A stretch of 55,677 bases of DNA, the filler included, from Basidiobolus ranarum (lineage: Eukaryota): NCBI GenBank assembly GCA_040143965.1. It is 5 parts of 5 records of this genome, joined end to end, with 100 filler letters (N's around TTAATTAATTAA, not from the genome) between each part and the next. Parts side by side here need not be neighbours in the genome. Positions count along the whole stretch, not along the records: positions 1 to 11,076 come from JASJQH010000640.1; 4 more parts are not named here. One strand, given 5' to 3'. The position numbers were made by a program, and so were the translations under genes. Positions 1 through 54,429 of the stretch are shown here, piece by piece. Within the stretch, counting starts at the first letter, position 1, and the number at the start of each line of letters is the position of its first letter. A model generated the notes under the pieces. That model worked only from the letters and a program-made list of their open reading frames with translations, was not told where the DNA came from and made no database searches.

Positions 1-939
1 AATTGGGATTTCTGCATAATCCACAAATCTCTTTTTTTCATTTGTCAAATGTTGGGAGGTTCCAGAATCAATATACCATGTTTGAGAATCCTTTTTGGTA
101 GTCATAGTTAGAGCAGATATGAACAAGTGATCTTCTGTTGTAATTACATTTCCAGTTGCAGTATGCTTTTCTTCTTTTCCAATTCCTTTTAATCAATCTG
201 TGCTCAAATGGCCAGTTCTTTTACAGTAAACACAGAATGTGTTACTTCTCATCTTAAAGTGCTTTTGACCTTCATAGGAAGGGTTCCCATCACCTATGAA
301 AGCATTTTCTTCATTCTTTTGGTTGGATTCTGATTTGCATAAATCTTCATCCAGAAGTCTGTCAAATACGTAATGTAAATCAAATTTTCAGTTCTTGATT
401 CTAGAGCCATCACTAGGCTCTGACACTTGTGTGACAGGCTATTCAGGACTGTAACTATGATATCTCAATCAGTGGTAGGTACTCCAATGCATTCCATTTC
501 ATCCACTAAAATAGTGCCTGTTTTAATTGGTGATTGAATGTCTTCTCCTGGCTTCATCTTTATGTTAACAAATTGTCTTCTTAGACACATCTTGCTAGCA
601 GCAGAACACATTTGGTAGGTGTCTTGCAAGGCTTTCCATACCCTCTTGGCAGTTTCAGCTCTTGAACATTGAATTATCAATTTTTCTTTATCAATAAGAC
701 AAATTGTGTTAAAGGCACTTTGTTCTTTTTTAACCTGGAATAAAACTTTGGCTTCAGATAGTTTTGCATTGTTTTCTTCTCCTACAATAGTGTCCCAAAA
801 TTCTTTTTCTTGCAGCAGCATTTTTATTTTAATTTTCCAAACTTGATAATTGATTCCATCCAGTTTTTCAGAAAATGGAAAAGTTCTATAAATTTGAGAA
901 GTAAACATTAGAGAGAGTGCAAGCTTGGGACTCATAAGC
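1..939 (-). mobile_element. Decayed Ty1/Copia retrotransposon 5' internal region (gag/UBN2, zinc knuckle, protease)
   Basis: ORF 465-935 is Copia gag-like (KLDGINYQVWKIKIKMLLQEKEFWD...). Further along the minus strand are a knuckle remnant CVYCKRTGH and the protease motif WYIDSGTSQHLT (~45-80). There are stops and frameshifts, and almost no CpG. Confidence 0.9.
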
Positions 940-1287
940 TGTTAAAGTATTTGGGAGCCTGTTGGAATTGGTTTGTAGAATTAGAGAAATTGGTGGTTTT
1001 CACTTGTTGACTTATTGAGTAGAAAGTTGACATTCACAGTTTTGTCAAGATGTAAGGGAACCAACATGTAGAATATGCTAAGAAAGGTCTCAGAATCATG
1101 TGTGCAGAGTTTGGGGCTTCCAGTGCAAGTTTGAAAAATCTATATATCTGAGAACTTCTAAGTTGGTAAAAGTATTCTAAGTAAATTCCAATTGAGAATA
1201 ATGGATAATATCATAGTGAAATATAAGATAACCAAGTACTAAGCTCTATATGGCTATATAGGTGTTTAGGCTATGCTAATTTCAACA
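940..1287 (-). repeat. 5' LTR of the Copia element (LTR family B)
   Basis: On the minus strand it reads TGTTGAAATTAG...TTTAACA and is followed directly by a PBS-like GCTTATGAGTCC and gag. It is homologous to the solo LTR at 28963-29206. Confidence 0.85.
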
Positions 1288-1489
1288 TCATCAATGTTAG
1301 CTTTTTTAAATAAGTCTCTTTGTAACTCCTCAATAACTACAAGTTAGACAGATAGAAAGATTTGACAGAATCAGACAAACAGCTTGCCAAGAATCTATTG
1401 GGAACATATGGGCTGCTTGGAGGAACTTTAGAAAAATGGAGCTGTGATCAACTTGTGAGTAAATAATTTATTGTCCAGAAATAAAGTAT

Positions 1490-1772
1490 GTATACATTTT
1501 GGTGGAAAAACAGAAAGCTAACACTGGATTTGTGCTCAGAACATCTGTGGGAGTAAAATGAGCTATCTTTGGGGCAATTTGGACAAGTTTAAAATTTCCA
1601 GTATAGAATTACTAATTCTCAGATAATTCACATATATATAAAATATATGTTCTGATTTTCAGCTAAGTGATATTTGACTAAATAATATTAACTAACTTAA
1701 GTGTAATATATGAAATAGTTAGGTGTATAAAGATAAAGATAACAAATATGATGAAGACAATAAACTTCAACA
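1490..1772 (-). repeat. Probable LTR-like remnant that truncates the Fanzor gene
   Basis: AT-rich, CpG-free tract ending in TTCAACA (an LTR terminus) exactly where Fanzor-like coding sequence starts. The left boundary is a guess. Confidence 0.45.
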
Positions 1773-2361
1773 GAATCTTTGAGAGAAGTTTGGGAATGAT
1801 ACTATATTAATACTAGGTGACTTGTCGGCTGGAAATGAAAAGTATCATAAGCCCGATAGAGGCGTCAGAATGAGAAAAATGATAGCCAAAGAAGGCTTCC
1901 AGTAGTACCTCCTTGACGAGTTTGAAACTTCAAGTCTGTGCCCTACTTGCCAGAACGTTGAACTGGAAAAATTTCAAAATGTCCAAAATCCTAGACCATA
2001 CAAAAGAGAAAAGTATCCTATTGTATATTGTCACGGCCTTTTAAGGTAAATGCTTTTTATATGCAAGTAAAAATTCCAACCTAATTTCTGTTCAGGTGCA
2101 ACAACCAACAGTGTTTAAAGGCCATGGCCAATACCACTGAGGCAACTACTAAAGATTCTCCCCTTCGTCTTTGGAATCGTGACCTGGCTGCTACTTTGGC
2201 ATATCCTTTTTAACTTGCGCTCAAATGGGGAAAGACCAGAACGTTTTTGCAGATTGAAGAAACCTCTCTCCACCGGGTATAAAAGAAAGGGCATCTCGTC
2301 AGTTAGCAGCAGTCGACCAAATCAAAAAGCAAACAATCCTGTGTGGTTATCGCTACACTAA
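1773..2361 (+). pseudogene. Fanzor (eukaryotic TnpB-like RuvC endonuclease), C-terminal remnant with a spliceosomal intron
   Basis: Manual translation gives NL*EKFGNDTILILGDLSAGNEKYHKPDRGVRMRKMIAKEGFQ*YLLDEFETSSLCPTCQNVELEKFQNVQNPRPYKREKYPIVYCHGLLR, then an intron at 2046-2095 (GTAAAT..CTAAT..TTCAG), then CNNQQCLKA...LRLWNRDLAATL, a frameshift, and HILFNLRSNGERPERFCR...stop. The DExxTSxxCxxC...C-x4-C...WNRDxxA pattern is the TnpB/Fanzor RuvC-II, zinc finger and RuvC-III signature. Confidence 0.88.
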
Positions 2362-2536
2362 ACATTTGATACAAAGTCTTTGAACACTTTTTCTTTTGCC
2401 ATGTGTCTGAGCTTATCTCCAATTTTTTGCGATTGTCCCATTGAATTTATGAAATGTCTAATTGATTTTTTAACTCATCTCATTTTAGATTAAAACATTG
2501 TAAGCGAAATCGGGAAAATACTTTACGATGGAGGTG
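2341..2536 (+). ncRNA. Candidate Fanzor omega-RNA scaffold / transposon right end
   Basis: It lies immediately 3' of the Fanzor ORF, where omega-RNAs are encoded. There is a hairpin GTGTGG-TTATCG-CTACAC at 2341-2358 and a possible terminus ...CTTTACGATGGAGGTG before TTAA. Boundaries are inferred. Confidence 0.3.
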
Positions 2537-3344
2537 TTAAAGCAATGTATTTATCTGTCTAAATATTTAAGCAGCTTATTGATATCAGAAATATGGAAAT
2601 CAGGGCATGTAGTTTGAATATTTCTTGCGAATGTGGAGAATAGACAACTCTTCTACTCTCTCTAAAACAGCCCCAAACTTTCACCGCCTCTTTCCGATGG
2701 CCCTTTCCTACGATACGGTAATTTAAAAGATGACCGTGTTACATTATACAAGGCTTATTTTCCAATTAAATTGAGGATTTCTCTGAATATCCTATTGATC
2801 TTATACATGTATTAATTAGGATAGGTGTATATTTCAGATGGTAATTCAACTGAGTTTTAAGATAAAGACTGCACTACTTCTAGTCTTCCTCGCCCCTCTA
2901 CCCCAAGGTATTATTACATGGCCTCTAGATCAGTTCTTAGCAGTATATTGACCATTGAACTGAGGCTAACATCACATGAGTAAAATAAGAATCATTCTTT
3001 ATCCGACTTGGGTAACGGCGAGTTTACCACATTTACAGTAAAGATTTTCAATGATTGGAATCAATTTCATTGGTATGGCACTGCTCATTTTTGTGCTTGA
3101 TGCTTAATGGTTCTTTGATGCACTGGTTAGCTCATTTTCGGTATACCCATAAAAAAAATGAATCAGGTATCAAAAATGGTCACTTTATTAATATGTTAGT
3201 GTTCAAATGAATAGATAAGTATTTCGTATAGAGTCTTGATAAATAATGGTTAAATGAAAAAAGGTTCACCAAAATGAGTAGGGAAGTATTAGAGTCATCG
3301 ATAAGAAGCCATACTTCAGATATTAAAGTGTGAAGTGAGTGGAT

Positions 3345-5906
3345 TTAGGTTTGAGAACCGAAACACCTTTCTACTGATCTAGAGTCATTTCCCCACCAAT
3401 TTGGCATGGTTACGGTGCTGAAGGCACCAAAGAAAAGGAAAATGCATAATAATGCTAGATTATACCCTGTATCAGCGGCTGCTCCTACGAGGTAATTATA
3501 CTTGCGCCAGGTTTCATGGCGATACCGGAAGAAGTAGAACATACAAACGAAGCCACCGATAAATTGTGAGAATGGCCCCGTAGATACGTTTCCGTAGAAT
3601 ACCTCCATGTTTGAAGAAAAGATGGTCACATTCCATAAGTCAAATCTCCATTTGGGGAATTTCTTGTGTAAGAAGAAGATGATAAGAGGCGCAATTACTC
3701 CGAGTAAGAATCCCCACAAAAGAGGGGAGTAGACTGATAGTTGGAAAAGACGAGCAGGTCCTACCAAGCCATATTGAACTGCAGAGTTGTTATAACTAGT
3801 AGGGTTTTGGCCCGTCCATTGGTTAAGAGGATCTTTTTCAGAGCCATCCAGGTAAGAACGCTTAGTATCGACTACCCAACGAATAACCAAATAGTTGATT
3901 GGAATTCCTATAATGTTTCCCCATAGTTGGGAAAAGAAAGTTGCCCGTGGAGGAATGTGCATGTAATGTCCGATCTTTTGATCTTGCAAGATTGTTTGTG
4001 CTCTGTACCAGCATTGACCCGCAACGATACGATAGACTAGTGACCCAATTGGATGGGTTCCTGGTGCAAGGTAACCATAAATTAACTCATTAAAGGTACC
4101 AACTGCAACTTGGTAATTACTGATCGCATAAATGTATCCCATAGGAATCACCGCAGCCCCACCAAGTACAATGGCAACAAGATAAGTCCACCTGTTGAAA
4201 TTCATTCATTAGCGCTCAGCTAGGGAAAAAATTAACATGATCTAACTTACCATGGGAGATACAAATCTTGAGTAAGTATAAGTATGGTCATAGTAGCGAA
4301 ACAGCACAAGAACAGAACCCCATACCACCTATATAATATGGTATGCGTTAGTTAAAATCTACACCTCACAGATTGGGGTAACATCCAAATTACCAAGTAG
4401 GAACTTCGGGATAAGCTGCCATCAATTTGTTGAGCTTATCTGGCTCTGCACGCTTTTCGCGCTTGTAAACGCGCTTGAAGGTTTTCAACAATTTTGGTCC
4501 AGCGAATAAACCAATATACATAAAGGCGGAGATGAATGTGCAATAACCAAAGAAAATAGTCCTAAAGAGCCGGTAATATTTAGTAAACGGAGGGTGGGAA
4601 TTTCACTTGAATACTGTAGCATACCAGAGATTATATGATCCCATATACACTGGCCCATATTCAGCATACGCAGTTTCATTGAATTTTAAGTCTGAAGTGA
4701 TCAACTTCTGGAAGGGGTACTTGCTACCTTCACCAGTAAACAATTTGTTGGACATGATGGGGAAATCGCGTCCTCCCCATAGGTTTCCAAAGTAAGACAT
4801 AGGCACCAAAATCCATACATTGAGCACGAAAGCAGCAAAGATGGTGACTTGCGTCCACCATGGGTAAAGCATGATTGAGCTGGTGATATTAGACCAATCA
4901 AGAGTGAAATTCAAAACACCCATTCCACCAAGTCCTGACCCCACAAACGCGACAGTATCGTTGTAAGGTGCGATCCAGCATAGGACAGCCAAACTAGAAG
5001 TAAATGGGAAAATATACTCTGGGAAGAATTCCCAAACAAATACTCCAGCCAGGACGAACCAAAAGATTTTCATTTGCTTTCTTGATGAAGCGTCAAACAC
5101 ACCATCACTACGCAGAGTCCTGTACAAAGTAGTTTGCATTAAAGCAGAGGGCCAAATAAGATCGGGGTCATAAATAAGGAAGTTTCTTGCTAAGGCAGCA
5201 AAGGAATAACCAGTCCAAATAGTAGATATCATGAGTGCTAAACAGAACAAGAATGTGAGTGTTTTGCAGAATTAAGAAAGAAGAAGGTTTCTTATTAGAG
5301 TACCAATGGCTCCCAAAGGGTGCATCTGTTCATGATAAAATAAATCCTTGACAGAAACAATAATCTCTCGCAAATTTGAGGTAGCGCCGGAACTAGCACT
5401 GAGGGTGATAAGTACATGCTCTTTGATCGAAAAAGGACCAGGGTTAAGATTGAATTTGAAGCCAAAGATATTGATTTCTTTGGCAGGAAGCACATCATGT
5501 AACCAACGTCCTGCCCAGTGAGTACAAATCTGGACAAAAAATAAGGAGTACGGCGCAGTGGTAGTTCGGAACCAACTCAGTTGTGACACAAAAGCACCAA
5601 GTCCTACGAAAATGAATGAAAGAAGAAAGTATCTATAGATTGAGGAATTAGTATGCTTCGACTATACAAGCAATCACTATCGAGGTACCTAAATGTCAGA
5701 GTGGGCAAAGTTGGATCGTCCTCCATCGAAACAATCTCTTTGACAATATCCGGAATCCCATCCAACTCGGGGTCTTTTTCATCAGCAGATGAAATCTTTT
5801 CTTCTGTCTTCAAAATCTCCTCGTAATCGATCTTACTTGGACTTTTTTCCGTAGATATAACATCCTTCTCTTTGGTATCCGAAGCCACTGGTTCTTGAGT
5901 CGCCAT
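3345..5906 (-). CDS. OPT-family oligopeptide transporter (multi-exon)
   Basis: Exons carry OPT motifs: EDDPTLPTLTFR, LNPGPFSIKEHVLIT, LIWPSALMQTTLYRTL, GLGGMGVLNFTLDWS, DQKIGHYMHIPPR, WRKYNYLVGAAAD, MPNWWGN. They are separated by short GT-AG introns. Confidence 0.95.
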
Positions 5907-8474
5907 GATTGAATTTCTCTCGAATGAATTCAGCTATGAGATGAAGTAGAATGCTGGATGATGGGATTTATATGTAAATACTTCAAAGACTGCTGATCAA
6001 GAACGGCCATTCACATTCATCTTTATCTCATCCGCAAATTAGTATCAGTATGGCGTGATGCTTTAGAATCACTAAATACCAGTGAAAGCCAAATCCTAAT
6101 ACGAATGGCATTTTAGAGTAACATAGTCTGGACCAACTATGGAGTCTCCCTAATCTAGATAATTCACCGACTCAACTTACCAACCTGTTTGTGAACGGTA
6201 TCCGTGATGATTATTCCTGGTACACAAGTGAAAATAACCAAAAGTATATCATTTTTACCACACTGGTTTGCTTAATTCGGAACCGTGCGACGCTCACCCT
6301 AAGAGCGTTTTTGCCTATTACGGCCTTGAACAGTGAGCCATATTGCTATATATATATGTATATTTATTGATGGCTGACATTCCCAAGAGTCGGCTATGTG
6401 TCTGCCCCTAATACCTTGATGCTCATAATACAACCAGCGATGCTGATCTACCTCCCAAAATCAACCTTTGTCAGTCGTGACGCCAATCTACTTGCTGTGA
6501 ATTCAGTGTTGGATGATGAGGAACTGGATCCCTTTGAAAAGTTGGTTGACACTTATTTCCAATCTATGAATGATAATAATATGACTCTGGTTATGGGAGC
6601 CACACGCTATCACGAACTGTTGTTACACGGAGAGTAATCGTTCAAGCTTAATAATCCTATTTCCAGAGGCGATACTTGTGCCTCGTTTGTAGATGTTGTC
6701 AGAGTTGGTGAATATCACTAAACTCTACATGGCGTCTTATTCGATCCTGGATTACGAATACAGAGGCACTATGGCATTATTGTGCGGTGGGACAGAAAGA
6801 ATTCTGGCTAAAGAAGTAATTGATACTAGAGTGCCTTATTGAAGAGCCATTGGAAGAAAACCAGAGACTTCTGGCTTCAATTGGCTAATGTAACGCTCAA
6901 GAATAGATAAAATTTCCAAAATTGATGGGCATTGATGGGCAATTGATCATCACAGCAACAACGATCATATTTTGAATCCAGACTAGCTACAATAGAAGTG
7001 GCATGATGTTTGGGTTTTGTTACCAGAACAGGGTTTGCATCTAAAATGGATTATTATTGTTATAATGTTCTAATTATCAACCTGATTGAATCAGTTCAGG
7101 AATGTCAAAATGGACTTTTTAGGCCCACACTTGCTTTCCTTGGTATGGGAATTTTCATATATCCTGATCCCAGGATTTTTATCCGGGTTTACAGATTCTA
7201 GTGATCTTTTACCACTGATATGGTCTTCCAATCAAACAGGTATTTGTAATGATACTTCCTACAAGCGCTACCAATCATCTGCCAAATTCACCACATACTC
7301 AGCTACTTGACTAAGCCTCGCGTGCATCCCCTCGTTAAATTGGTATTGGCTCTACGAATTCTCTTTGAAAATATTATCGGTAATTTGAATATACATATTG
7401 GAGAGCGCGCTATGAAGAGAGAAGAGAAAACTAAACTAAAAGATGTGTAACGATACTAACTCTGTCACCGGGGAGAATAACATACCAGTAATATGCTGCG
7501 ATGTTGTATTCCTGTATATCTCAGTCGGAAATCAATGATGCCCCTCGTGATTTGGTTCATATTTGATCCGAAGATAAGATAGTTATTCATTATTTGCCCT
7601 CGACCTCTATTCACAAACAAACCCTATTCTCAATCAAGGTGCAAGCACAACATGACACTATCAATTGTTGGCTGCATTGTAGGATTTCAGTGGTGTTCTG
7701 GATAACTAAAGATTCGAACTTAGTTGGTGCCACTTTACTGCAGACTTGAGTTATGCTAGATTATATGAGAGATAGACCTGTAATAATCACTACGATGAGG
7801 TATTAACTTGAAACTAGATTCTAGGGAGCACAAAAAAATAATATGCATATCCATTATCTCTTCTCAGAGTTCCAACTTGGTGTGTATTTCGGTTGCCAAC
7901 TCAGAAACTTAGACTGTAAATGAAAACTAAATACACTGCAAAACGCCTGACTGAAGCAGATACAAAGCAAAATAACAATATTTCAGATGTAGAAGTTTCG
8001 ATTTGGCCTCAGTACATAGCTACTTTATATTGTACATAAGCAGCACAAAAGATACCATGATTTTGAAATAGCCTTAACTGAGTCAAAATAGAGCCCCTTC
8101 CTCTCCCAATATTGTGCAATGATCAAGGTGAGTACTTTCGGTTCTTTTTTAAAAAATTCAAATTGCACAATAAATATTTTGCCGCTTTCCCAGTTTTCGG
8201 CTCAAATTGGCCGAGGGTTGATATTTCCGGCAAAAGTGGACTTGCAAAATGAATGGATCTTAATTTCCAAGAATTACAGTTCTTGTGTTAGAGTCACGTG
8301 ATATTTCATGCTTGGAATAGGTTGTGGGATACTAGAAAAATGAGTTAAATGGATAGAATTAAATCTCCATTTTTGCCGAGACAGTGATGTGTGGAAAAAT
8401 TCGAAATTATTCTTATTCAAGCAATTAGTAGAATTGTGACTTTATCGAAACCACTTTCAAGTAGACTACTCAAA

Positions 8475-9470
8475 ATGCTGTCATTTTTTCGTCGTTCTAT
8501 GGACGTCTTGCGTGAGGAGACCAGAAAAGGTACCCCTCTACTCTATAACCCATAAGTGGACTAAGACCAGAATTTTCTAACTTTAAGTGACTTACTCATA
8601 ATCCAGCTGCAACATTTGAAAATATGAGATGGAGAAAAGAACTTCCACTTCTAGAAATCAGTAAGAAAGAAGATCTCGAGAATTGGATTGTCGGTTCAGA
8701 TAAAGATATTGGTGGTAAAACGAGACTATCTTTTCAAGAAATCCTTGTTGAATATACTTTCTTAAATCATGCTTCAATCGTAGGATTTTCCACTGCTAAA
8801 TTGGAACTCTCTCCTGAAGGAAAAGGTTCGATATTTTACTCAGCTCTAAAATATTCTCACCTTTTCTGATAGCATAATTATTCCTTAATAGGTCACTTTC
8901 ACGGATATTTGTCTTTAGATCTTCCTGAACAACTAGATATAAAGAAGAGTGGCTATGCCGGATTTCGCTCCAAGGTAAGCTTCTACCATTGATACCTCAA
9001 TTATTAGCACCGCCAACTTAAACTGTTTCCAGAATCCCCCTTCTACTTTGTGGGGCAATCAGTACTGGGATACCACACCATTTCGCTATCTAGCTGTTCG
9101 TGTGAAAGGGGATCATAGAAAATATTTTGTCAATTTACAAACGGATGGCTATGTTAAAACAGACTTATTTCAACATCGATTATTCCTCAAAAAGCCTGGA
9201 GATTGGGAAACAATCATGGTAGCTTCTATTGATGAATATATCCAACAGCCATTGTGAACTAAATACCCATTACTTTGTTAGATTCCCTTCCGTGACTTCA
9301 TTCTTACTAACAATGGAGTCATCCAAAATCGACAAGTAGACATGTATCGTGAAAAAGTGAAGAATTTCGGATTCTCAATCATTGATCGACAAGAAGGGCC
9401 TTTTTCTTTGGAAATCGACTGGATCAAAGCTATGAATACAGAGGATACTGATGGTGACGTAGATATTTAA
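8475..9470 (+). CDS. CIA30: Complex I intermediate-associated protein 30 (NDUFAF1/CIA30), multi-exon
   Basis: Exons read WIVGSDKDIGGFS, SGYAGFRSK, WDTTPFRYLAVRVKGDHRKYFVNLQTDG, IPFRDFILTNNG and EGPFSLEIDWIKAMN. ATG at 8475, TAA ending at 9470. Confidence 0.93.
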
Positions 9471-10412
9471 TCGTCGAAAGTTGCCACCTTTTTTATCTTA
9501 TTTCATTGTACCAATTTGCGTATACAATCTGCATTCATCAACCACTTGATATTTCACTTCACCCCGCTTCCCTGGTCCTCAGTATATTTATGCTTGATAC
9601 TAAGGCTAAGAAAAGCGGATAATTCAATAAATTGAAAATTTTTGGTACAGACATCATCCAAGTAGAAAGTTGCCTCGATATTGGACTAGTGATCGAACAG
9701 TATCTCATCAAGCTTATTCTTGCCATCTATTACGGGTAGCAATGGTCATAATATAATCAGGATTTATGATATGATTGATTTTCATGTGATCTTGAGTTCT
9801 ATTTTCCAATTTCATTTCCTAGAAAATCATGGTGGATCCCATACTTACGATGAAGTATAGAATGGGTATATGAGGGAACTTGGAATTTATGATGATTTCC
9901 CCATCCGTCTTTATCGTGGTTGGAGTAAGCATTTCCGTGAAGTACCTACTGAGATATGCTCTGCTGACACCCAATCTAGTCAACCTTTATGGAGGTTACT
10001 CTCTGTGTAGAGTGGCCTCAATTTTTGGAAGCCACGAAAGTGGCTATAAATCTTAAATCAAATCAATACCTTATTCTATCATAACAACCTTAGGGCGTAG
10101 GCGTTTGCATTTCTTAAGTGTACACATGGTAAGGCAGGCTTGTCCATTTGGGGGTTAGCGGTTAGTAGATCATATAACGTTCTTTTATTGAAATAAATAG
10201 CGAAATCTATATGTATACATACAAAATGAATGGTAACTGATTCGTGTATTCTTGAGACTTGGATGAAAATCAAAAACTTATATATGGCTTTAAACAAAAA
10301 GAAAAGTAACGATAAAAGGTACAATTGAAGAGGAAGATAAGAATTTAATCCTAAATGAAAAGGATAATATGTTTTTTTGTGAAGGATGTAGATAATGGTA
10401 GTAATATTATTA

Positions 10413-11076
10413 TTAGCTTTGGAGATGTAAACTACTTAGCGCGGTTCCTTTGGCTACTTCGGACATAACTTTCGTAAGATTCTCTTTATGGCATGGCTTG
10501 GTTAAACACATGTCCATTCCTGCAGCTAAGCATTCTTCTTTGGTTTTTGATTGCGCATCGGCAGTGAGTGCGACAACCGGAATCCTACGTGGTAGAAGAT
10601 TTTCTTGTTCAAAATTACGAATTCGGCGAGTGGCTTCATATCCATCACATAAGGGCATCATCTTATCCATAAAAATGCACGCGAATCCATTCGGTTTATC
10701 CTTATAAGCATCTACTACTTCTAAACCATTGTTGGTTACTGTCACGTCATAACCCATTTTCTCGAGCATACGTGTGATCAAGCGTTGCGCTACAAGGTTA
10801 TCTTCTGCTACCAACACATGCATCCCCTTACTGCCTTTTTCATTAGCAGCTCCGTTCTTGGATTTACTACCTTTATCGGAGAGGGAGAGTTTGGCTTTTT
10901 TCCGTGGTGTATGGTTTGAACTGACCGAAGTAGCGGTAGTGGTGGTGGCAATGGCGACAGTCGGCAGCGAAAGGGGAATACTGAGTTGTGTAGATACAGT
11001 GGATGGTTCTTCGACAAAGCCATTATCAAACATCTCCACGACACTCTGAAGTAGCAGTATTCTTCTGACTGGTTTT
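10413..11076 (-). CDS. C-terminus of a hybrid histidine kinase / response regulator (receiver domain), cut by the contig end
   Basis: Receiver-domain motifs VLVAEDNLVAQRL, IFMDKMMPLCDGYEAT, IPVVALTA and CLAAGMDMCLTKP. Confidence 0.9.
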
Positions 11077-11176
11077 NNNNNNNNNNNNNNNNNNNNNNNN
11101 NNNNNNNNNNNNNNNNNNNNTTAATTAATTAANNNNNNNNNNNNNNNNNNNNNNNNNNNNNNNNNNNNNNNNNNNN
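11077..11176. other. Artificial contig linker
   Basis: 44 N + TTAATTAATTAA (stops in all six frames) + 44 N. Confidence 0.98.
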
Positions 11177-14100
11177 CAAAGATTGCAGAAAACGGGATTT
11201 TTGATGAAAAGCTAAAGTTGGAACCAGCAAATGAAGTCAGCACTATTGGGGATCATCTATTGGTGTCTGCTCTATCAGTAACCACTAAGCAAGACTCAGA
11301 AAAGTGGTTTATTGATTCAAGTGCCTCTTAGCCTATGCCAAATAAGATAAAATTGGTTTTCTAGCTTAAAACATATCCAAATCAGGAAAGTCTACTTAGA
11401 TGATGACTATCCACTAGATGCAGTTTGTTTGGCTTAGCAGCTGGGATCAAAATGCAAAACTAATACAAGCTAAAAACAACAAATTGCATTCTGAGCATTC
11501 AGACTTGGCCAAATCTGATGTAGCAACCTGTCAAATTTGGCATAAAAGATCAGGCAATATTGGGGATCAAAAACTGATGAAAATGATTCAAAATATGCTG
11601 CTTTTGGGCTTAAAAATCAAACATGTCACCAAATGGAATCTGTGTGAAGGTTGCTTTTATGTAAATCATCACAGAGAGCCTTTTTAAAGCCTTGACGGGA
11701 GCAAGTCCACTCAAAACTTTGCCCTGATTCATTCTGACCTATGTGGACCCAATCATATGGCTCACTAAGTGATCAAAGGAACTCTATGACCTTGATTGAT
11801 GACAAAACAAGATATACTTGAGTATTTTTTCTCAAATCAGAATATGAAGCCTTAGCTGCATTCAAGCTGTACAGAGCAAAGATGGAGAAAGAATTACCAC
11901 AAAAAATATGGGTACTAATTAGTGAAAATGGTAGTGAATTCTGCTCTAAAGACTTTGACATTTTTGTTCTAAATATGGACTTAAGCAACAAACTATTGTA
12001 CCTTCTACTCCACAGAAAAATGAAGCTGAAGAATGTGCTAATAGAATCATAGTGGAGATGGCAAGATCAATGTTACATGATCAAAAGATAGTTTACCAAT
12101 ATTTGGCTCAATCTGTCTCCACTGCTGTCCTTATTACCAACAGATGTCTAACAAGATTGATACAAGGTTCTATTCCATTTGAAGCCCCATGTGGATCAAA
12201 ACACAGTGTGGATCATCCCCGGATCTTTGGTTGCAAAGCATATTGCCCAATTTCAGGTCAAAAATGCTCTAAACTGTATCCTCAAAGCCAAATTGCATAT
12301 TTCTTGGCTACAGACTGTTTGACACCACAACTGAGAGGTTAGCCAAGAGCAGAGATGTGATTTTTGATGAAAAAGCTTATTGCTATCTCAAATTACACTT
12401 CTTGATGCAAAAAACACAATCAGCACTATTCAAGAATTATCCAACAAATTTCCAGCTCTATCCAAGCCAAATTTAACCAACTCTGGCCCCAATTACACCC
12501 ATGGATAAATGAGAACCTAGATGATCACCCAGACAGAGAAATGAGCCAGGCTGCTGGTGGAATACTTCCAATGATGATGTCTATGATGATGCAACATTCA
12601 ATGATGAGCCAGAGACTTTAGATCAAGCTATGGATAAGCCATTAGATCATTCCAAGCATTCTTAGCCATCCATAACCTTGATAAACATCTAATGGATGTG
12701 AAATTGACTTCACAAATGGAATTCTAAAAGAAGAGATCTATGTGAAGCAACTGGAACAATTTATTGACCCATAACCACCTGGTATGGTCTGTATGCTGCA
12801 ATAATTGCTATATGGACTCAAGCAGGAGCCCAAGGGATGGTACAGTCAGATTGATACACATTTGGAATTATTGTAATTCCAAAAAGGTACAGCATATCAC
12901 AGTATATACATCAAGACTACAGCAAATTAGAACCGTATCTTGGCACTATTTGTGAATGGCTTGATTGTAGCCCTAAATGCTCTAGAAGCACTTAATTGGA
13001 TGAAAAGCAGCTTATCAATCCTATTACAGATGACAGATATGGGTGAGTCAAGGAATTTTCTTAGAAACCAAATCAAGAGAAATAAACCTATTAATTAATC
13101 AGGCTGAATAGGTTTGGATACATTCTAGGCACTCTAAAGTGATTTAGAATCAAGAATAGTAAGTCTGTATCAATGACAATGCATCTCAATGTGAAATAAA
13201 TTAAAATAGCATCCAATTTGTCCCAAATTGACCAAAACCAAAGCCAGGAGTTCCCTTATCAATTCATGGTGGGTAGCTTAATGTATACAATGGTTAAAAC
13301 ATCTTCACACATTGCTGTGGAAGTGGGAACTGTCAGCCATTATCTCAAAGATCCACCATGTGAGCACAAAACTGCAGTAAATTAAATATTCAGGTAGTTG
13401 AGAGAAACTGTGGATCTAGTTTTGGAATATTGTGACACTTGTGCTACACAAGTGTTTGAGGGCTACAGTCATGCAGACTGGAGAAGAAACCTTGGTGATG
13501 GAAGATCAACCACTAGGTACACCTTTCTCAATAGTAATGAAGCCTTAACTTAGATTAGTAAGGAGCAACTGACTGTGCCACTTTTAACTATCAAAGCAGA
13601 GCATATGGCTGCCACTGCTACTACAAAGAAAGCTACATGGTTCAAGAAGTTATTTTCAGACTTAAGATGCATGCAAAAATTTGCTCTGATGGTATTTGAA
13701 TAAAGTCCAAGTTGCGTTTCATAAGCTAAAAACCCTATATTTTGAGGTAGAACAAAACATAAATATCATTAGGCACCATTTGGTTAGATAATTAATAGAG
13801 AACAATATCATTACACTTGTCTATTGCCCTGTGGAAGAGAGTAGTGCTGACATCTTAACCACACCATGAGCCAAAAAATAATATGAATCATTAATATTTA
13901 AGTTCAGTTTAAGAGAACTACCAAAAAATTAGTTGAGTAGAAAGTTGGATTTAGGTAAATAGCACTTATTGCTTGGTAATTGGTTTATTCTTATTCTGTT
14001 TATTTAGCATTCATTCCTGCCACTCAAAAACATGTGTTTATTATCCTAATTGATACAAATATTAATTAGAACACTTTCACCACTCTTTACTACCTTCTCA

Positions 14101-14293
14101 AATCTTCTCTAAATCACCTCAAATTTTCACACATGCTTAACAAGCATTCTTATTATCATCTCAGCATGTTCGATAGTTGTATTTCATAGTAAACTATAAG
14201 CAGGACACATTCAAGGCCATAAAACCTAAGTGTCTAAATGCCAAATCCAATTCTTGCCCAAAACACTTCCAAATTCCCTAAACACTTTAATCA
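11177..14293 (+). mobile_element. Decayed Copia element (PR-IN-partly deleted RT-RNase H-PPT-3' LTR family A at ~13943-14293)
   Basis: Fragments WFIDSSAS, IHSDLCGP, TPQKNEAEECANRIIVEMARSMLHD, RIFGCKAY, YQFMVGSLMY, GYSHADW and SADILT in Copia domain order. A purine tract is followed by a ~350-bp LTR ending TTAATCA. Confidence 0.9.
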
Positions 14294-15057
14294 AATAATC
14301 TAGTTTTTCTTGTTTTGTCATCAATAAAAGTCATAAAGTGCCTTTTGCCACCTAGTGTGATGTTTTCATACATAACTCAGAATGCAACAAAGAAACATTC
14401 CAAGTGAGGTTTATCTCTCACAAGCTTGAAAAGAGCTATTGGTAATGTTTTCCATATATGCAACCATTATGCAGATCCAATTTGGAATATTCAAAGTATC
14501 TAAGCATGTAACTAGTGGATTGCTAATCATTTGGGTATGTTTTGTTTTCCAATATGGCCTAATCTTTAATGTTATTTATGTCTGCTTATTTCACTGGTTT
14601 TGGCCAGTTTGCTTGTTCAGAATGGAATTTGCTGAATGCTAGCTTGATATGCTTACAGTTTTGATCCTAGTAGTTAATTTAGTATCATTCTTATCTGCAA
14701 TAGAGCATCCAGCCTTGTAGAGCACAAACCAAGTCATTGAGCTGCTGGTTGGCTTACTGAGAGTAGATTTATGGTGATATTTGATTCACAGAGTACAGCA
14801 TGCTTTTTGCCAATGGTGTAGCTGCATTTTATCCTTGATTGAGCACAAGTGTGCACTGACCAACTGCATCTAGTGCACAGTAACTTACTAAATAGATCTT
14901 TCTTGTTTTGTTGGGTTTTAAGCTTGAAAACCAATCTTTCTTGTTTGACATATGCTGCAAAGCTTCTAAGATAATATATCACATTTCTGAGTCATCCTTT
15001 GTGGTTGCATATAGGAGAGACACAAGAAAATGATCTTGTTCAGTGCTTACTTGTCTA
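14294..15057 (-). mobile_element. Inverted Copia fragment (protease to integrase N-terminus)
   Basis: The reverse complement resembles 16210-17290. For example, off-frame YVKQERLVFKLKT matches YVKQERLVFQLKT at 16269-16538. Confidence 0.8.
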
Positions 15058-18000
15058 TATTGAAATCAGGTAAGTAGCAACTCATTATTTAGTAGTTAGT
15101 TTGTTCATATTCTGATTATTTAATACTCAATTCTGTCATTTAAAAACATGTGTTTATTGCTCTAATTGATAACAATATCAATTGGATCACTTTTATCCAT
15201 TTTCACAATTTTCTCAAGACTTCTCCAAATAACCAGAAGTTTTCACCCATGCTTAACAGGCATGTTTGTTATTATCTAAGCATGACCAATAGTTCTATTT
15301 CATAGTAATCTATAAACAGAACATATTCAATTCAACACAACTTAAGTTACTAATTCACACCTTCAAATCTTGTCCAAAACAGTTCTAAATCTCCTAAACA
15401 CTTTTATCAGGTCATAAGCCCCAAGCTTGCTATTAATGGAATGTCTACTAGTGTATTATCAATATTTTCACATGCACAAAGAAGTTAGATGGTAAAGACT
15501 TTGACCTTTGGATGTTAAACATGCAAATGGTGCTGGAAGACAAGGAGCTTTTGAGATTGTTACAGGAGAAGAGATAGAGCCAAGAGACCACCAGAAGCTA
15601 TCCTTGCCTTTCACAAGGAGCAGGGGAAAGCATTCTCTACACTTTGCCTACAACTTGGAGACTCTCTATTGAGACACATACATTCAGCTAAAAACAACTA
15701 AAATGCTTGAGAACCACTTAAGGGACTATATGAGACAAAAAGTCTGGCTAATAGGATATATCTTAGGTGAGAATTATTCTCAATTCAGATAAAAACTAAC
15801 AATTCTATACTTAATCATATTTATGGGATAAAACTAAGGCCAATCAGCTTTCATCCATTGGAGCACCCCTAAATGAAGATAACCTAGTCATGACACTACT
15901 TGGTAGCCTGCCAGACAAACTTGGGAGCCTTATAAATGCACTGGAATCAAGATCAGAGCCATTAACAATGGAATATATAGGTGCTAGGATTTTGAATGTG
16001 GAATTAAGGAGATCTAACTCTCAGCAAAATAATGCACAACAGGCCTTTTTTGGAGCTGTAACATGTCCAACAGGCTTCAATAATGGTGCTCCTAGTAGGA
16101 AATCAATCATCTGCAAGTATTGCAGGAAACCAGGCCTTCTTATCAAAAATTGTAGAAAAGGATTTTTGCTGAAAAGCTAAAGTTGGAATAAACAACTCAC
16201 AGAATCACTGATAGGGATCATCTATTTGTGTCTGCCCTATAAACAACCACCAATGAACACTCAGAAATGTGGTACACCAATTCTGGAGCTTCCCAGAATA
16301 TGTCAAACAAGAGAGATTGGTTTTCCAGCTTAAAACCTATCAAACAAAGAAATTCTACCTAGGTGATGACTATGCTCAAGATGAAGTTGATAAGGGTGCA
16401 GTTGTATTCAATTTAGACCAAAATTCATCTACACCATCTGCAAAATTGGATGATGCACTCTATGCACCAAATATAGCCTGGAATCTACTCTCAGTAAGCC
16501 AAGCAACACCTCAAGTACTAAATTTTGTGCTCAGCTAGGCTGGATGTGTTGAAATTAGGTAAATAACATCTCTTTTTTAGGTAGTTAGTTTGTTCATATT
16601 ATGATTATTTAGCACTCAATTCTGTCATTTAAAAATGTGTGTTTACAGCTCTAATGGACAAAAAATCAATTTGATCACTTTTACCAATTTTCACTATCTT
16701 CTCAAAACTTCTCCAAATCACCTCAAATTTTCACCCATGTTTAACAGGCATGTTTGTTATGATCCAAGCATGTCCAATAGTTCTATCTCAGAGTAAACTA
16801 CCAATAGGACATATTCAATTCAATAAAACTTTAGTGTCTAATTCACAAATCCAAATCTTGTTCAAAACAATTACAAATCCCCTAAACACTTTAATCAGGA
16901 TGCACTATCACAGATCTGAATATTACCAAATTAGCCACTGGGATCAAAATGCAAAACTTATTGAAGCTAGATATCAACAAGTTGCATTGTGAGCATGCAA
17001 CTGTAGCCAAAACCTGTGAAAAAAGCTGTCAATCATGGCATAGAAGATTAGGCCACGTTGGGGAGTAAAAATGGACCCCAATGATCTGAAATCAGCATGT
17101 TTCATGATTATAAATTGAGAATATCTCCAAATTGGATCAATGCAAGGTTCTCTATGTGAAACATCACAGACTGCAGTTTTCAAGCTCTGTAGAGATCAAA
17201 TCCACTTGGATTTTGGCTTGATTCATTCAGATCTATGTGAGCCCGTGCAAAACAACTCACTAGATGGGAAAAGGTAATTTATGAACTCTATTGATGACAA
17301 GATGGGATATTATGAAGCATTCCCAAGCAATGGTAGAGAAAGAATCAGCACAAACAATAAGGGTACTAAGGAGTGATAATGGTGGAGGACACCACTCTAA
17401 AGACTTTATTAGTTTTTGTTCTAAACATGGAATTAAGCAACAAACTACTGTATCTTATACTCCACAGCAAAATGGAGTTGCAGAATGTGCTAATATGACC
17501 AAAGTGGAGATAGCAAGATGAATGCTACATGATCAAAAGCTAGACTACCAATATCAAGCTGCATCTGCCTCCACTGCAGTCTATATTAAAGACAAATGCC
17601 TAAAAAGATTGCTACAAACTTCTACTCCATTTGAAGTCCTATACACATCAAAATCAAGTGTGAATTATCTCTGGATCTTTGGTTGCACTGCCTATTGCCT
17701 AATTGCAGCTCAAAACTGCAATATTGGAATCCAAAAGCAGAAAATGCATATTTCTTGATTATTGCAGTGAATCTAAGGCCTATAGACTGTTTGATACCAA
17801 AAATTAGAAGTTAATTAAGTGCAGAGATGGGATTGTTGATGAGAAAGCAAATTTTTCAACTCAAATCACAATACCCGTGCCAGAAAACACAATCAGGACT
17901 ATTCTGGAAGTGTCTGACAGAATTCCAGCTGTATCTGAGCCCTATTCAATCAAAATTTTAGTCTCAATTACATCAGAGAATGATTCAGGGCCTAAAAGAT

Positions 18001-18642
18001 CATAAAGAAGGAGAAATAAGCTGGGAAACTATTGGAACATTTCCAACAATGATGCATGCTTATGTAGCATTCTGTGATGAGCCACAGACTTTGAATCAAG
18101 CTCTGGAGTGTTCAGAACAAAAGTCATGGGAAAAAGCAATGTTTGATGAGCTTTTTTCACTTCAGGAAAATAAAACATTGGTTCAGGGAGAAAGCCAACA
18201 GGTTGCAAATGTGTCTACAAGGACAAAACTCAGTTGATAGAATCATAGAAAGGTAAAAAGCAAGATTAGTTGCCAAAGGTTATTTCCAGACTCCAAGAGT
18301 TGATATCAATTCAAACTTTGCTGTAGTGGCCAAGTTTAGCTCCAGTATATCAATCCTGGCACTCTCAGTCATCTGTAACCTTGATTTACATCAAGTGGAT
18401 GTAAAAACAGCCTGTCTGAATGGATATCTAGAAGAAGAAATCTATATGGAGCAACCAGATGGATTTGTTGACTCAAAACACCCTGATATGATCTGTAAAG
18501 TGCAAAAATTGCTATATGGACTCAAGCAAGCACACAGTGCATGGTGAAACAATGTAGATACCTATATGGACAGCAGATCACAATATCTACATCAAAACAA
18601 CTCTTGTCCAAGACACTTCCAAATCTCCTAAACACTTTCATC
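15058..18642 (+). mobile_element. Decayed Copia element: 5' LTR-A (15058-15409), PBS, gag, PR, IN, partial RT, ending in an LTR 3' fragment
   Basis: The LTR ends TTTTATCA followed by GGTCATAAGCCC. Motifs include CKYCRKPGLLIKNC, VLRSDNGG...YTPQQNGVAE and LHQVDVKTACLNGYLEEEIYMEQPDGF...LYGLKQA. Confidence 0.92.
16547..16897 (+). repeat. Nested solo LTR (family A) with 5-bp TSD GGATG
   Basis: Reads GGATG|TGTTGAAATTAGG...TTAATCA|GGATG. The uninterrupted site GCTGGATGCACTA is present in another copy near 49108. Confidence 0.92.
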
Positions 18643-18867
18643 AGTTTGGCTAGTTCCTGCTTTAGCTTTTTAACCAAATATTTCTTACAAAAAGATTTGA
18701 CTAGATGACCTGGTTTCTTGCAATATATGCAGATGAATGATTTCCTATTAGTGGCATCATTGTTGAAGCCTGTTTGATGTTTAACAGCTCCAAAAGATGC
18801 CCAATCTGCATTATTCATTCACAAGCCTGGTTCAGAGCAATAAGCACATGTTTGTGAATGGCAGAAT

Positions 18868-19149
18868 TATTGAAATTATTTAGGGAAAAATATTGGTCTG
18901 GCCATGATTTAAACCTAGGACCTCCTTCACTCTAGCAAGGTGCTCTAACCACTGAGTTACCAGTCCTTGTATTCTATGCCTATATAACTAGGGAACCTTA
19001 ACCTAGTCTGTCAATGTATGGTACTTTGGCATTTCAGCCATACAAGCAACTGATTGGCCTTGGACTTTGTGTTCAGATGCAATCACCATACACTGTATTT
19101 TCCTCTTTGGGAATTACTGCTTGTACCACAAGTCTCTAGACTTTCAACA
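18868..19149 (-). mobile_element. 282-bp solo-LTR-like insertion carrying a tRNA-like cassette, 5-bp TSD AGAAT
   Basis: Reads AGAAT|TATTGAAA...TTTCAACA|AGAAT, with 7/8-matching inverted termini. Removing it rejoins the LTR-A sequence (GCACTCTATTCT-GCCATTCACAAACATGTG on the minus strand). Confidence 0.85.
18894..18966 (-). tRNA. Degenerate tRNA-like sequence (73 nt, nominal anticodon AGA) inside the LTR-like element; probably not a functional tRNA
   Basis: GGACTGG TA ACTC AGTGGTTA GAGC A CCTTG CTAGAGT GAAGG AGGTC CTAGG TTTAAAT CATGG CCAGACC A folds as a cloverleaf with about one mismatch per stem. It has an A box and a decayed B box, and is followed by TTTTT. Confidence 0.7.
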
Positions 19150-19239
19150 AGAATAGAGTGCAAAATAATTGAATTTGAATAAACTAACTGCTAAAAAATG
19201 TGCTGCTATTTACCTAATTTTCAACAATCTCTTCAACAT

Positions 19240-19830
19240 GATCAGCTGATTCTTGACTGTGTTACAGGTGAGCCATCAGGGGACTTGCAAGATACTTTTG
19301 GTAACTGATGGCCATATTGTGTAATACACAGAATGTTTCAATGCCTTTCAAAAAGTGCCAAAATCTTAAACAAAATTGGCTTCCAAGCAAAAGGCTGCTG
19401 GCAGGAATGGAAAAAACCAGCAAAAACAGAAACCTCAGTTGATGAGCAGTCTAGTGTTTCACTCTCCACTTTGGAAGGCATGAACATGCTTGTAACTACC
19501 TCAAGTAACAATAAAACATTATTGAATTGACCAGATGTCTTCCTTTATGGCAACAGTACAATTGACTAGGCTGCAATTGCCCAATTACATAATATATAAC
19601 AATTGAGTAAAGCATTACAGAAAAATAGTCAAGACCAATAACTTCAAAAACGCTTAATTTGCCCACTGTCAAAGACCCCTCTGTGTGTAATTCAGACAAA
19701 GTTATTACAACAATGCAATTTCAGGCAGAATACCACAATATTTTGTATGTTATTAAAAGTAACAACAGAAAGGTGCTCCATTGGCTGGGTAAACAATATC
19801 ACAATTAATGCAGCATTCTGAAGCTACTAG
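19240..19830 (+). repeat. Unclassified dispersed repeat with decayed coding potential (copy 1)
   Basis: Colinear similarity to the reverse complement of 54430-55075, with shared blocks such as CAAGCAAAAG, TCCACTTTGGAAGGCAT, AGTTATTACAACAA and CAATTAATGCAG. Confidence 0.7.
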
Positions 19831-22236: not shown

Positions 22237-22336
22237 NNNNNNNNNNNNNNNNNNNNNNNNNNNNNNNNNNNNNNNNNNNNTTAATTAATTAANNNNNNNN
22301 NNNNNNNNNNNNNNNNNNNNNNNNNNNNNNNNNNNN
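22237..22336. other. Artificial contig linker
   Basis: N44-TTAATTAATTAA-N44. Confidence 0.98.
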
Positions 22337-28962: not shown

Positions 28963-29206
28963 TGTTGAAATTGACATAGACTAAACATCTATATAGTCAT
29001 ATATAGCCTAATATCAAGTTATTCCATATTTCACTAAGATAACACCTATTCTCAATCGAGGCCCCGAACTTTGCACACATGTTCCTGGAACCTTCCTTAA
29101 CATATTATACACGTTTGTTTGCTCACTCAATAAATCAGTAAGCGGAAGCCATAAATTATTTCTAGTTCTCCTAGCCACTTCCAACAGCTCCCAAAATACT
29201 TCAACA
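28963..29206 (+). repeat. Solo LTR, family B (internally deleted relative to 940-1287)
   Basis: TGTTGAAATTGACATAGACTAAACATCTATATAG...CCCAAAATACTTCAACA is colinear with the reverse complement of 940-1287. No clean TSD is visible. Confidence 0.85.
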
Positions 29207-33394: not shown

Positions 33395-33494
33395 NNNNNN
33401 NNNNNNNNNNNNNNNNNNNNNNNNNNNNNNNNNNNNNNTTAATTAATTAANNNNNNNNNNNNNNNNNNNNNNNNNNNNNNNNNNNNNNNNNNNN
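33395..33494. other. Artificial contig linker
   Basis: N44-TTAATTAATTAA-N44. Confidence 0.98.
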
Positions 33495-44539: not shown

Positions 44540-44639
44540 NNNNNNNNNNNNNNNNNNNNNNNNNNNNNNNNNNNNNNNNNNNNTTAATTAATTAANNNNN
44601 NNNNNNNNNNNNNNNNNNNNNNNNNNNNNNNNNNNNNNN
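44540..44639. other. Artificial contig linker
   Basis: N44-TTAATTAATTAA-N44. Confidence 0.98.
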
Positions 44640-44847
44640 TTCACTATTTTCTCAAAACTTCTCCAAATCACCTCAAATTTTCACCCATGCTTAACAGGCA
44701 TGTTTGTTATGATCTAAGCACGTCCAATAGTCCTATTTCATAGTAAGCTATAAATAAGACATATTCAATTCAATAAAACTTAAGTGTCTAATTCACATAT
44801 CCAAATCTTGTCCAAAACACTTCCAAATCCCCTAAACACTTTTATCA
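44640..44847 (+). repeat. 3' portion of LTR family A
   Basis: Closely similar to ~16690-16897 and ends CACTTTTATCA. Confidence 0.9.
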
Positions 44848-44884
44848 AGATTTGTTTTTGATCTTCAGAATTGTATGTCTCTAA

Positions 44885-45500
44885 ATGTTTCTATTGGGAA
44901 GCAAAGATTTTACCATATTGGTGATCATTAAGAGACTTCCTTCATCTATGCACAAAGTTACAACAACCAATAACTTATCAACTCATAGATATGCAATTGC
45001 TTTTTCTAAACATCTTGATGGAGAAATGATGTATGTAGCTTTTAAATCTTCTGAAACTATAAATCACATGTTAACAGATATTCCTTTTGTCAAGAAAGTC
45101 CCCTTTGTTGGCCAATTTTTTGAAGGATTTGTACACTCTTGATTTTATAATATTGCAAAAGACATTCCACTTGGTGAATTTATTAAATTAATGGACACTA
45201 AAACAATTAAAAATATTGTATTTACCAGTCATTCACTAGGAGGAGCCATTGCTTCCAGTGTTGCTCTTCAGTTATTAGTATGGCCTAATATAAACAAAAA
45301 TTCTATTTGGATTTATACATTTGGGTCACCTCCAATTGGTGATATTGAATTTGGAAAATATTGTAAAATGCAATATTCTGATAACTTTACATCTTTTTAT
45401 AACAAGAGTGATGTTATTCCTTGCATTGCTAGAATTGCACTTAGTCTAAGTAAATCCATTTGCAACCAGCATAGCAGTTATTTGTATAATTATCAAGATG
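44885..45500 (+). pseudogene. Intronless class-3 lipase remnant
   Basis: One frame with a single stop: MYVAFKSSETINHMLTDI...VHS*FY...IVFTSHSLGGAIAS...IYTFGSPPIGD..F...NKSDVIPCI. These correspond to lipase_3 motifs VHxGF, GHSLGG, YTFGSP and DxVP. Confidence 0.85.
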
Positions 45501-45519
45501 GGTATATATTAAAAATTTT

Positions 45520-46810: not shown

Positions 46811-46979
46811 TGTAAATCTTTGAGGGTGATGGAAATTTTGGATTCTGTCACAGAAAATATGAAGATGGTGGGGGAGGTGTGAAAATTGCATTTATTGGCA
46901 ATTTGCTATATTAACTCAAGCAAGTGCCCAGAGCATGTACAACAAGATAGAGACTGTTGCATTCCTGATGCGCAATATT

Positions 46980-47957: not shown

Positions 47958-47962
47958 GAGAT

Positions 47963-53920: not shown

Positions 53921-53959
53921 ATATAATTAAATAATCCTATAAATATATAAAATAGTTAT

Positions 53960-54420: not shown

Positions 54421-54429
54421 TTTCTAGAG

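Follow-up and report, generated by a model that had tools for sequence, protein, structure and literature searches.

A broken Fanzor1 gene in a transposon remnant of Basidiobolus ranarum and its likeness to elements of the Mucorales

What is the interrupted reading frame that lies beside a Copia retrotransposon in Basidiobolus ranarum, and how did it come to be there? The window analysed here is a stretch of 55,677 nucleotides from GenBank assembly GCA_040143965.1, five parts joined end to end, filler included, of which positions 1 to 11,076 come from JASJQH010000640.1. A first-pass annotation of this DNA had placed at 1773-2361 the C-terminus of a Fanzor, a eukaryotic RNA-guided nuclease, of the fungal Fanzor1 type and with a hidden intron. 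Comparison with related sequences confirms that window positions 1741-2361 on the plus strand correspond to the last ~28 % of a Fanzor1 protein. Very probably, a small transposon with terminal inverted repeats (TIRs) and with Fanzor1 as its only cargo has left a dead copy here, interrupted by a Copia element and internally deleted. Membership of the Fanzor1 family is assigned by descent; the locus is no functional member.

Identity and coding content of the remnant

An 88-residue piece translated from 1783-2046, with the TAG codon read as X, was searched against solved structures and against 1.84 billion representative proteins. Among the structures it matches the Fanzor1 of Parasitella parasitica (PpFz1; PDB 9cf0-9cf3) at E 7.8e-27 over 87 residues, and that of Spizellomyces punctatus (SpuFz1) at E 7e-8. 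Among the representative proteins there are 671 relatives at E ≤0.001 and 201 at E ≤1e-10, and all named close relatives of the remnant are fungal. The closest long relative, Rhizopus delemar KAG1613708 (P0155), matches PpFz1 at E 1.3e-128. When lone short pieces were compared with solved structures, a 38-residue piece returned WD40 noise and the 55-residue tail returned nothing.

A family profile of 690 positions, built from 34 relatives of at least 520 residues, was run over the window in six frames, as 2981 stop-free pieces. The top four matches are the four pieces of the remnant, collinear and end to end (Table 1). With its stops read through, the frame 1741-2319 matches positions 497-669 of the profile at E 1.3e-51; profile positions before 497 found no match anywhere in the window in the six-frame search. 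The identity is thus read from the profile as well as from PpFz1, SpuFz1 and the motif set described below, and the earlier assignment to a Fanzor/TnpB C-terminus of fungal Fanzor1 type is borne out. The annotated extent of 1773-2361 lies inside the feature; the true feature is larger, since protein homology starts at 1741 and DNA homology covers 1288-1374 and extends to 2500.

Metagenome contigs were also scanned with an alignment of the remnant's relatives, which gave 24 loci, and window 900-3400 was compared with these by blastn. One of them, L001, is a contig of 4815 bp that encodes a copy 92 % identical to R. delemar KAG1613708, and it serves below as the reference for the window.

Table 1. 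Features of the Fanzor1 locus and its neighbours, with the evidence for each. LTR, long terminal repeat; OPT, oligopeptide transporter; asterisks in a translation are stops.
Feature	Window position	Strand	Evidence
Partial Copia-type LTR retrotransposon	1-1287	-	Inserted in Fanzor element; one CpG in whole stretch
Copia Pol beta-barrel piece	1-192	-	PF22936, E 4e-6
Copia gag	465-941	-	PF14223, E 1e-17
Copia 5′ LTR	~941-1287	-	Minus-strand start TGTTG at 1287
Fanzor1 N-terminal coding scrap	1288-1374	+	Frame from 1290 INVSFFK*VSL*LLNNYKLDR*KDLTES; local alignment to L001 2410-2497
CpG-free filler, 366 bp	1375-1740		In place of L001 2498-3730 (~1.23 kb, ~residues 90-500 including RuvC-I)
Penultimate Fanzor1 coding block	1741-2045	+	243/297 aligned bases identical to L001
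Profile match	1783-1902		Profile positions 511-550, E 9e-14
Profile match	1906-2046		Profile positions 552-598, E 8e-25
50-nt phase-2 spliceosomal intron	2046-2095	+	GTAAAT...CTAAT...TTCAG
Profile match	2085-2210		Profile positions 596-628, E 5e-8
Last Fanzor1 coding block	2096-2361	+	194/251 aligned bases identical to L001
Profile match	2119-2358		Profile positions 628-669, E 1.6e-3
3′ untranslated region and right TIR	2362-2500	+	91/132 aligned bases identical to L001; last 45 nt best kept
TA beside element end	2501-2502		Possible half of a target-site duplication; TA also beside both L001 ends
OPT gene	3345-5906	-	Three short introns; 65-91 % per block to B. meristosporus OPT (P0168)

The breaks can be read directly. 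On translation a single frame extends over about 1741-2046, with TGA 1780-1782 and TAG 1903-1905 as in-frame stops, as the annotation had stated. The first of these codons is Arg in relatives and AGA in L001, and the second is Val or Leu in relatives. An origin of TGA 1780 from CGA by CpG deamination was considered and is unsupported, because L001 has AGA at this codon. The frame resuming at 2097 reads CNNQQC...LWNRDLAATL and meets a stop at 2211, and the first frame picks up again with HILFNLRSNGERPERF... and ends at the native stop, TAA 2359-2361. This change of frame, previously placed as a frameshift near 2197, is explained in the alignment to L001 by an 8-nt deletion between 2194 and 2195.

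In Fanzor1 proteins, Bao and Jurka (2013) describe the motif set [TS][TS]-x-x-C4 zinc finger-x(5,50)-RD and a conserved Gly ~35 residues before a relocated Glu (G500/E536). The RuvC-II Glu, relocated relative to most TnpBs, has been called the 'alternative glutamate' (Jiang et al., 2023). In the Fanzor1 RuvC triad, as reported by Xu et al. (2024), the second strand and a helix each carry an Asp, and the Glu sits on the loop between the fifth strand and the TNB domain. The zinc ribbon, the RD and the relocated Glu just before the TNB domain are all found in the remnant. The RuvC-II Glu is encoded by GAG at 1918-1920, in LLDEF, and the RuvC-III Asp by GAC at 2181-2183, in NRD, with the Arg at 2178; both catalytic codons are intact, as first noted. 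The Arg-Asp stands 21 residues after Cys 2112, within the 5-50 residue spacing of Fanzor1. The zinc ribbon, TSSLCPTC ... CNNQQC, has its Cys codons at 1939, 1948, 2097 and 2112, all in conserved columns, and the second pair is reached only once the intron is removed; that splicing completes a four-Cys finger therefore agrees with the annotation. Glu 1918-1920 follows Gly 1816-1818 at a distance of 34 residues, and this Gly probably occupies the canonical position of the RuvC-II Glu.

Among 80 relatives, 28 columns are conserved to 85 % or more. The remnant keeps 27 of these, including the Gly, the Glu, the four zinc Cys and the Arg of RD, and the sole miss is an Asn removed by the 8-nt deletion. 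The RuvC-I Asp, which is the first catalytic residue, is not present in the window, either by profile or by comparison with L001. What the remnant retains is thus the zinc ribbon and two of the three catalytic residues, the second and the third; the first Asp and the REC and WED parts are missing, and therefore no nuclease can be made from it. An open reading frame (ORF) for the full protein is absent, given the two stops, the 8-nt deletion, three stops in an N-terminal scrap, ~400 missing codons and the Copia insertion.

The intron, likewise, can be read directly and is as annotated, with GT at 2046-2047, CTAAT at 2081-2085 and AG at 2094-2095. Its removal joins ...CHGLLR to CNNQQC..., as translation confirms. 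In L001, a GT-AG intron of 59 nt occupies the same codon position, and 45 of the 50 bases that align with the window intron are identical; the annotated Rhizopus protein P0155 is spliced at the same site. The site was surveyed in 150 relatives; the alignment of 18 stopped before it, leaving 132. Cys comes next in 90 of them, the protein ends exactly there in 19, another residue follows in 12, and 11 have Tyr and then unrelated residues, as expected for unspliced read-through of AG followed by GTA[T/C]. Marks of truncation or read-through are therefore present in 30 of the 132 relatives.

In the neighbouring OPT gene, the introns are 44, 65 and 59 nt long. Because they share the size range, the GTA donors and the CTAAY branch sites of the remnant intron, the latter is host-like in its sequence. 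The remnant motif was found in 21 of the 24 metagenome loci (not in L003, L013 or L016). In 20 of these, all more distant, the frame runs straight into the Cys, and the intron is seen only in L001. By these comparisons the intron is specific to the close clade, and the splice at 2045/2096 is supported by homology.

The transposon and its decay

Comparison with L001 shows the extent of the element. By blastn, window 1772-2386 matches L001 3764-4404 (77.6 % of 642 columns, E 1e-143, intron included) and window 1288-1373 matches L001 2410-2496 (80.5 % over 87 columns, E 1.6e-15). Further right, window 2456-2497 matches L001 twice, at 4533-4575 on the plus strand (88 %) and at 1772-1726 on the minus strand (85 %). 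These lie in the TIRs of L001, which are 135 nt long (1721-1855 and 4446-4580), 89 % complementary, and enclose ~2.85 kb with a single gene from 2221 and no transposase. From 2221 onward, L001 codes for an N-terminus that a Helicostylum relative (P0152) also has.

Both ends of L001 finish ...TTTTAGATTAAAACACTA, then TA. The element in the window ends ...TTTTAGATTAAAACATTG at 2500, also followed by TA, and the three-way alignment of this end with the two L001 ends stops at ...AAAACAC/TTA, just before the TA. Given the shared end sequence, the right boundary of the remnant is the transposon end at 2500. A 4-bp duplication (TATA / TGTA) fits the ends as well as TA does, with both ends visible in one insertion only. 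The left part of the transposon, including the left TIR, falls outside the window. L001 has, in addition, a perfect inverted repeat of 43 nt upstream of the element (975-1017 / 1192-1234), which may represent another small element.

On the left, a scrap of the N-terminal coding region adjoins the Copia LTR directly, the LTR ending at 1287 and Fanzor homology starting at 1288. It has in-frame stops at 1311, 1323 and 1353, and its counterpart in L001 reads INVDFF.KEVFLSLLKNYKPDKQK. Since the LTR ends where N-terminal Fanzor coding DNA begins, the Copia element is inserted in the gene. A solo-LTR-like copy at 28963-29206, in the opposite orientation, is 77-81 % identical, with deletions, to 940-1287 and stops there. 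That the neighbour is a real Copia, as had been annotated, is established by its gag (Table 1). The L001 gene changes frame in a T run at 2424-2431, in the N-terminal coding region, where the window scrap reads on in one frame; the change is private to L001 or an assembly error.

Over 155 gap-free codons, the remnant and L001 differ by 0.57 synonymous (dS) and 0.135 nonsynonymous (dN) substitutions per site, dN/dS 0.24. Together with the 27 of 28 conserved columns kept, this indicates that the divergence took place mostly under constraint and that the decay was late. The ancestor of the element was probably active until fairly recently. It had been suggested that the remnant may be relatively young because it retains CpGs, unlike the flanking Copia DNA. 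The dN/dS and the kept columns uphold relative youth, whereas the CpG argument fails. The remnant (1741-2361) does have 14 CpGs (observed/expected 0.57), however all are at or after 1826, and the next 3 kb of unique DNA to its right are at the same level, 0.61-0.62. There is one CpG in window 1-1825, so that the border between CpG-poor and CpG-normal DNA lies ~85 bp inside the remnant; with ~2 CpGs expected in 1741-1825, it could equally coincide with the left edge. A border inside the remnant and a level equal to that of the unique DNA on the right suggest that CpG content reflects the domain and not the age.

In its intact form, the element would have been ~2.85 kb long, with 135-nt TIRs, one gene and no transposase of its own, and would probably have been mobilised in trans by a TA-targeting transposase. 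The cargo would have been a Fanzor1, a nuclease of the TnpB type in which the RuvC site is split and a zinc-ribbon (TNB) domain is present, with an omegaRNA from the right end as its guide. The events probably came in the following order. Copia would have inserted in the N-terminal coding region, so that the left TIR and some 63 initial codons would now lie on its far side, outside the window. The middle of the element would then have lost about 1.2 kb, RuvC-I among it, with 366 bp of unrelated DNA in its place, and the two stops and the 8-nt deletion would have arisen in the surviving C-terminal 190 codons. Saito et al. (2023) report precedents in S. punctatus, where some Fz genes are partial, some Fz loci have taken up an LTR retrotransposon and some consist of a single ORF between inverted repeats.

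According to the literature, Fanzor1 is an omegaRNA-guided double-strand DNA endonuclease. Saito et al. (2023) report that in SpuFz1 the scaffold of the omegaRNA begins at the stop codon and takes in the right inverted repeat, the 14-15-nt guide being read from the flanking DNA. By analogy, 2362-2500 is where the scaffold would be expected here.

A number of results weigh against the dead-transposon reading as set out above. Pfam finds PF07282 (Cas12f1-like TNB domain) in the remnant only below threshold, at E 0.05 and 14 bits against a cut-off of 26.3; the long relatives likewise give only weak PF07282 matches. The stretches 2300-2600, 2362-2500 and 2416-2515 fold no better than shuffled sequence does (z +0.0 to +1.6), the consensus fold of the three element ends reaches -3 kcal/mol with no shared structure, and an Rfam search of 1200-3400 gave nothing relevant, with one chance-level snoRNA match at E 0.41. 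The filler at 1375-1740 has no similarity to L001 or the other 23 loci, nor to the Copia element, no profile match in any frame and no copy in the window, and is perhaps deletion-repair filler or a scrap of another repeat. The junction at 1287/1288 is the one piece of sequence evidence that makes the parts a single element split by Copia, and L001 is tied to Rhizopus only through its protein identity to P0155.

Two other accounts of the locus have to be considered. The idea of a live spliced gene, or of an exapted short protein, with breaks that are assembly errors or are bypassed, can hardly be right and is already close to refuted. Although the catalytic Glu and Asp and all four zinc Cys are intact, the intron is host-like and the B. 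ranarum relative (KAK9764880) is annotated as a protein of 181 amino acids, the frame has two stops and the 8-nt deletion, there are three more stops in the N-terminal scrap, ~400 codons including RuvC-I are absent and Copia lies inside the gene. In the B. ranarum model, moreover, the Glu is replaced (LLDQF), as is a zinc Cys (CPTF), and the RuvC-III segment is skipped. It is also very unlikely that the right end still works at the RNA level while the protein gene is dead, being used by an intact Fanzor1 elsewhere in the manner of a 'ghost' locus. No non-coding part is better preserved than the last 45 nt (88 % to L001, with 22 of 24 terminal bases identical), ORF-less SpuFz1 ghost loci are reported to keep the scaffold region (Saito et al., 2023), and the late decay means that a partner may still exist. 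However, neither 2416-2515 (z +1.2) nor 2362-2500 (z +1.5) folds better than shuffles and the three ends have no consensus structure. TIR conservation alone explains the similarity, the same sequence being kept at the left end of L001, and no intact Basidiobolus Fanzor1 is among the annotated proteins found. A dead copy of a transposon, Copia insertion and internal deletion included, remains the best explanation.

Three further candidates around the remnant were rejected. A 19-nt inverted repeat bracketing it (1344-1362 / 2544-2562) was equalled by 75 of 200 shuffles. An apparent repeat of the 'ADKRLAKNL' segment, at 1368-1412 (tblastn E 5.5), has no profile support and is due to chance, and a profile match at 52429-52575 (positions 268-301, E 0.065; 0.34 when read through) was treated in the same way.

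Relatives and origin of the element

Among the relatives, the B. ranarum protein KAK9764880, itself a decayed fragment, is the nearest to the remnant (128/164 residues identical, 78 %), followed by R. delemar P0155 (127/182, 70 %), Helicostylum (47 %) and Coemansia of the Zoopagomycota (38-45 %). P0155 and Helicostylum are only 53 % identical to one another. KAK9764880 is the only Basidiobolus-named relative found; no Basidiobolus name occurs among the top 120 long P0155 relatives, though this says little in either direction. In the gene models of both B. ranarum (P0002) and Phycomyces blakesleeanus (P0006), the RuvC-III (NRD) segment is skipped and the tail, ...FNL(H/R)..., follows directly, as it would if a lesion also broke the frame at this point in their loci.

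A tree built from 18 named rows places the window with the B. ranarum protein (support 99/98), in a clade with R. delemar and Phycomyces (95/94), so that the Basidiobolus copies nest inside the Mucorales. An approximately unbiased (AU) test rejects all Mucorales rows as one clade (p 0.007), for a group that was named after the first tree had been seen. For the OPT neighbour, the block at 3345-4205 (minus strand) shares 91 % identity with Basidiobolus meristosporus, against 69-71 % with the best Mucoromycota, which independently assigns the host to Basidiobolus.

It is likely that a Fanzor1-only TIR transposon, intron included, moved horizontally from Rhizopus/Phycomyces-like Mucorales into the Basidiobolus lineage and was then active under purifying selection until not long ago. 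The nesting, the dS of 0.57 and the 90 %-identical intron fit horizontal transfer far better than common descent of two phyla. Vertical descent, or contamination, as the source of the likeness to a Rhizopus-type element is the less likely account, although it has points in its favour. Transposon families have many old paralogues and nesting can arise by differential loss, the AU test group was chosen with the tree in view, and L001 can be tied to an organism only indirectly. Such descent is nevertheless hard to reconcile with so low a dS and so similar an intron relative to the L001 copy, whose protein is 92 % identical to that of R. delemar, or with Zoopagomycota Fanzor1s, those of Coemansia, that are only 38-45 % identical. 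As to contamination, the remnant lies 1 kb from a Basidiobolus-type OPT gene on one contig, this gene is only 69-71 % identical in protein to any Mucoromycota, and the window copy is joined at 99/98 by one from a second Basidiobolus assembly.

As a gene, the remnant is of no consequence, since it is broken and its family is already known to be abundant among early-diverging fungi. It is useful instead as a marker, placing a Mucorales-type Fanzor1 element in Basidiobolus, and as nucleotide-level evidence (dS 0.57, intron 45/50) for Fanzor transfer between distant fungi, which had been proposed in general terms earlier (Saito et al., 2023). If the transfer is real, Fanzor elements cross between distantly related fungi that share habitats, and Basidiobolus may hold an intact, compact, intron-bearing Fanzor1 of ~600 residues, apparently without the RuvC insertion (FRI) domain, together with its omegaRNA.

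Comparison with known systems and the surrounding DNA

The C-terminal module of RuvC-II Glu, TNB zinc ribbon and RuvC-III Asp is shared by the window with PpFz1 and with the R. delemar/arrhizus family of KAG1613708, and P0155 has the same intron site, low-complexity tail and stop position. Unlike either protein, the window keeps the last ~28 % only, in broken form, and its host is Basidiobolus and not one of the Mucorales. P0155 has no match to ~100 PpFz1 residues at the FRI domain, the match being split at 985/1089; from this split, the P0155 subfamily appears to lack the FRI domain.

The Spu-1 Fanzor1 loci of S. punctatus resemble the window in having partial copies and LTR retrotransposons in or beside the Fz gene, as described by Saito et al. 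(2023). They differ in being distant in sequence (E 7e-8) and in their inverted repeats, which are reported as 30 nt, compared with 135 nt in L001. The S. punctatus omegaRNA was demonstrated by small-RNA sequencing (Saito et al., 2023), whereas the right end in the window gave no fold signal.

Among the carriers described by Bao and Jurka (2013), Fanzor1-only mariner-TIR elements with TA duplications, such as PUl-4, are also without a transposase and have inverted repeats. TA beside both L001 ends and the right end in the window is in keeping with this type, although a 4-bp duplication fits equally. Some Rhizopus and Phycomyces Fanzor1 elements are given there as MuDR with 9-bp duplications, which the flanks of L001 do not fit. 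Prokaryotic TnpB of the IS200/IS605 type has the same fold family and catalytic logic, and the remnant matches PF07282 weakly; it is unlike the remnant, which has a spliceosomal intron, close relatives that are all fungal and a relocated RuvC-II Glu. In the same account, TnpB elements (IS200/IS605, IS607 and TnpB-only) are without TIRs and target-site duplications, whereas the L001 carrier has TIRs.

Partial Fanzor1 genes, Fanzor-only TIR elements and LTR insertions in Fz loci are therefore already described, to judge from the published accounts cited here. The literature search found no mention of Fanzor together with Basidiobolus, and in the literature searched Fanzor and the Mucorales are linked by the PpFz1 structure paper (Xu et al., 2024).

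CpG content is bimodal across the window, with near-CpG-free stretches (gaps of 0.6-2.9 kb) beside stretches with an observed/expected ratio of ~0.6. The CpG-poor stretches are 370-1825, 12221-19650 and 44722-55502, with a TpG+CpA excess of 1.2-1.4, which fits methylation-driven or repeat-targeted C-to-T decay. The last of these includes ORFs with Lipase_3 and RNA polymerase Rpb2 domain-3 matches (45143-45670 and 45892-46548), which may be pseudogenes or captured pieces. Runs of N occur as four pairs of 44 nt, at 11077-11176, 22237-22336, 33395-33494 and 44540-44639, with a spacing of ~11,160, and are masking-like, not gap-like, in appearance.

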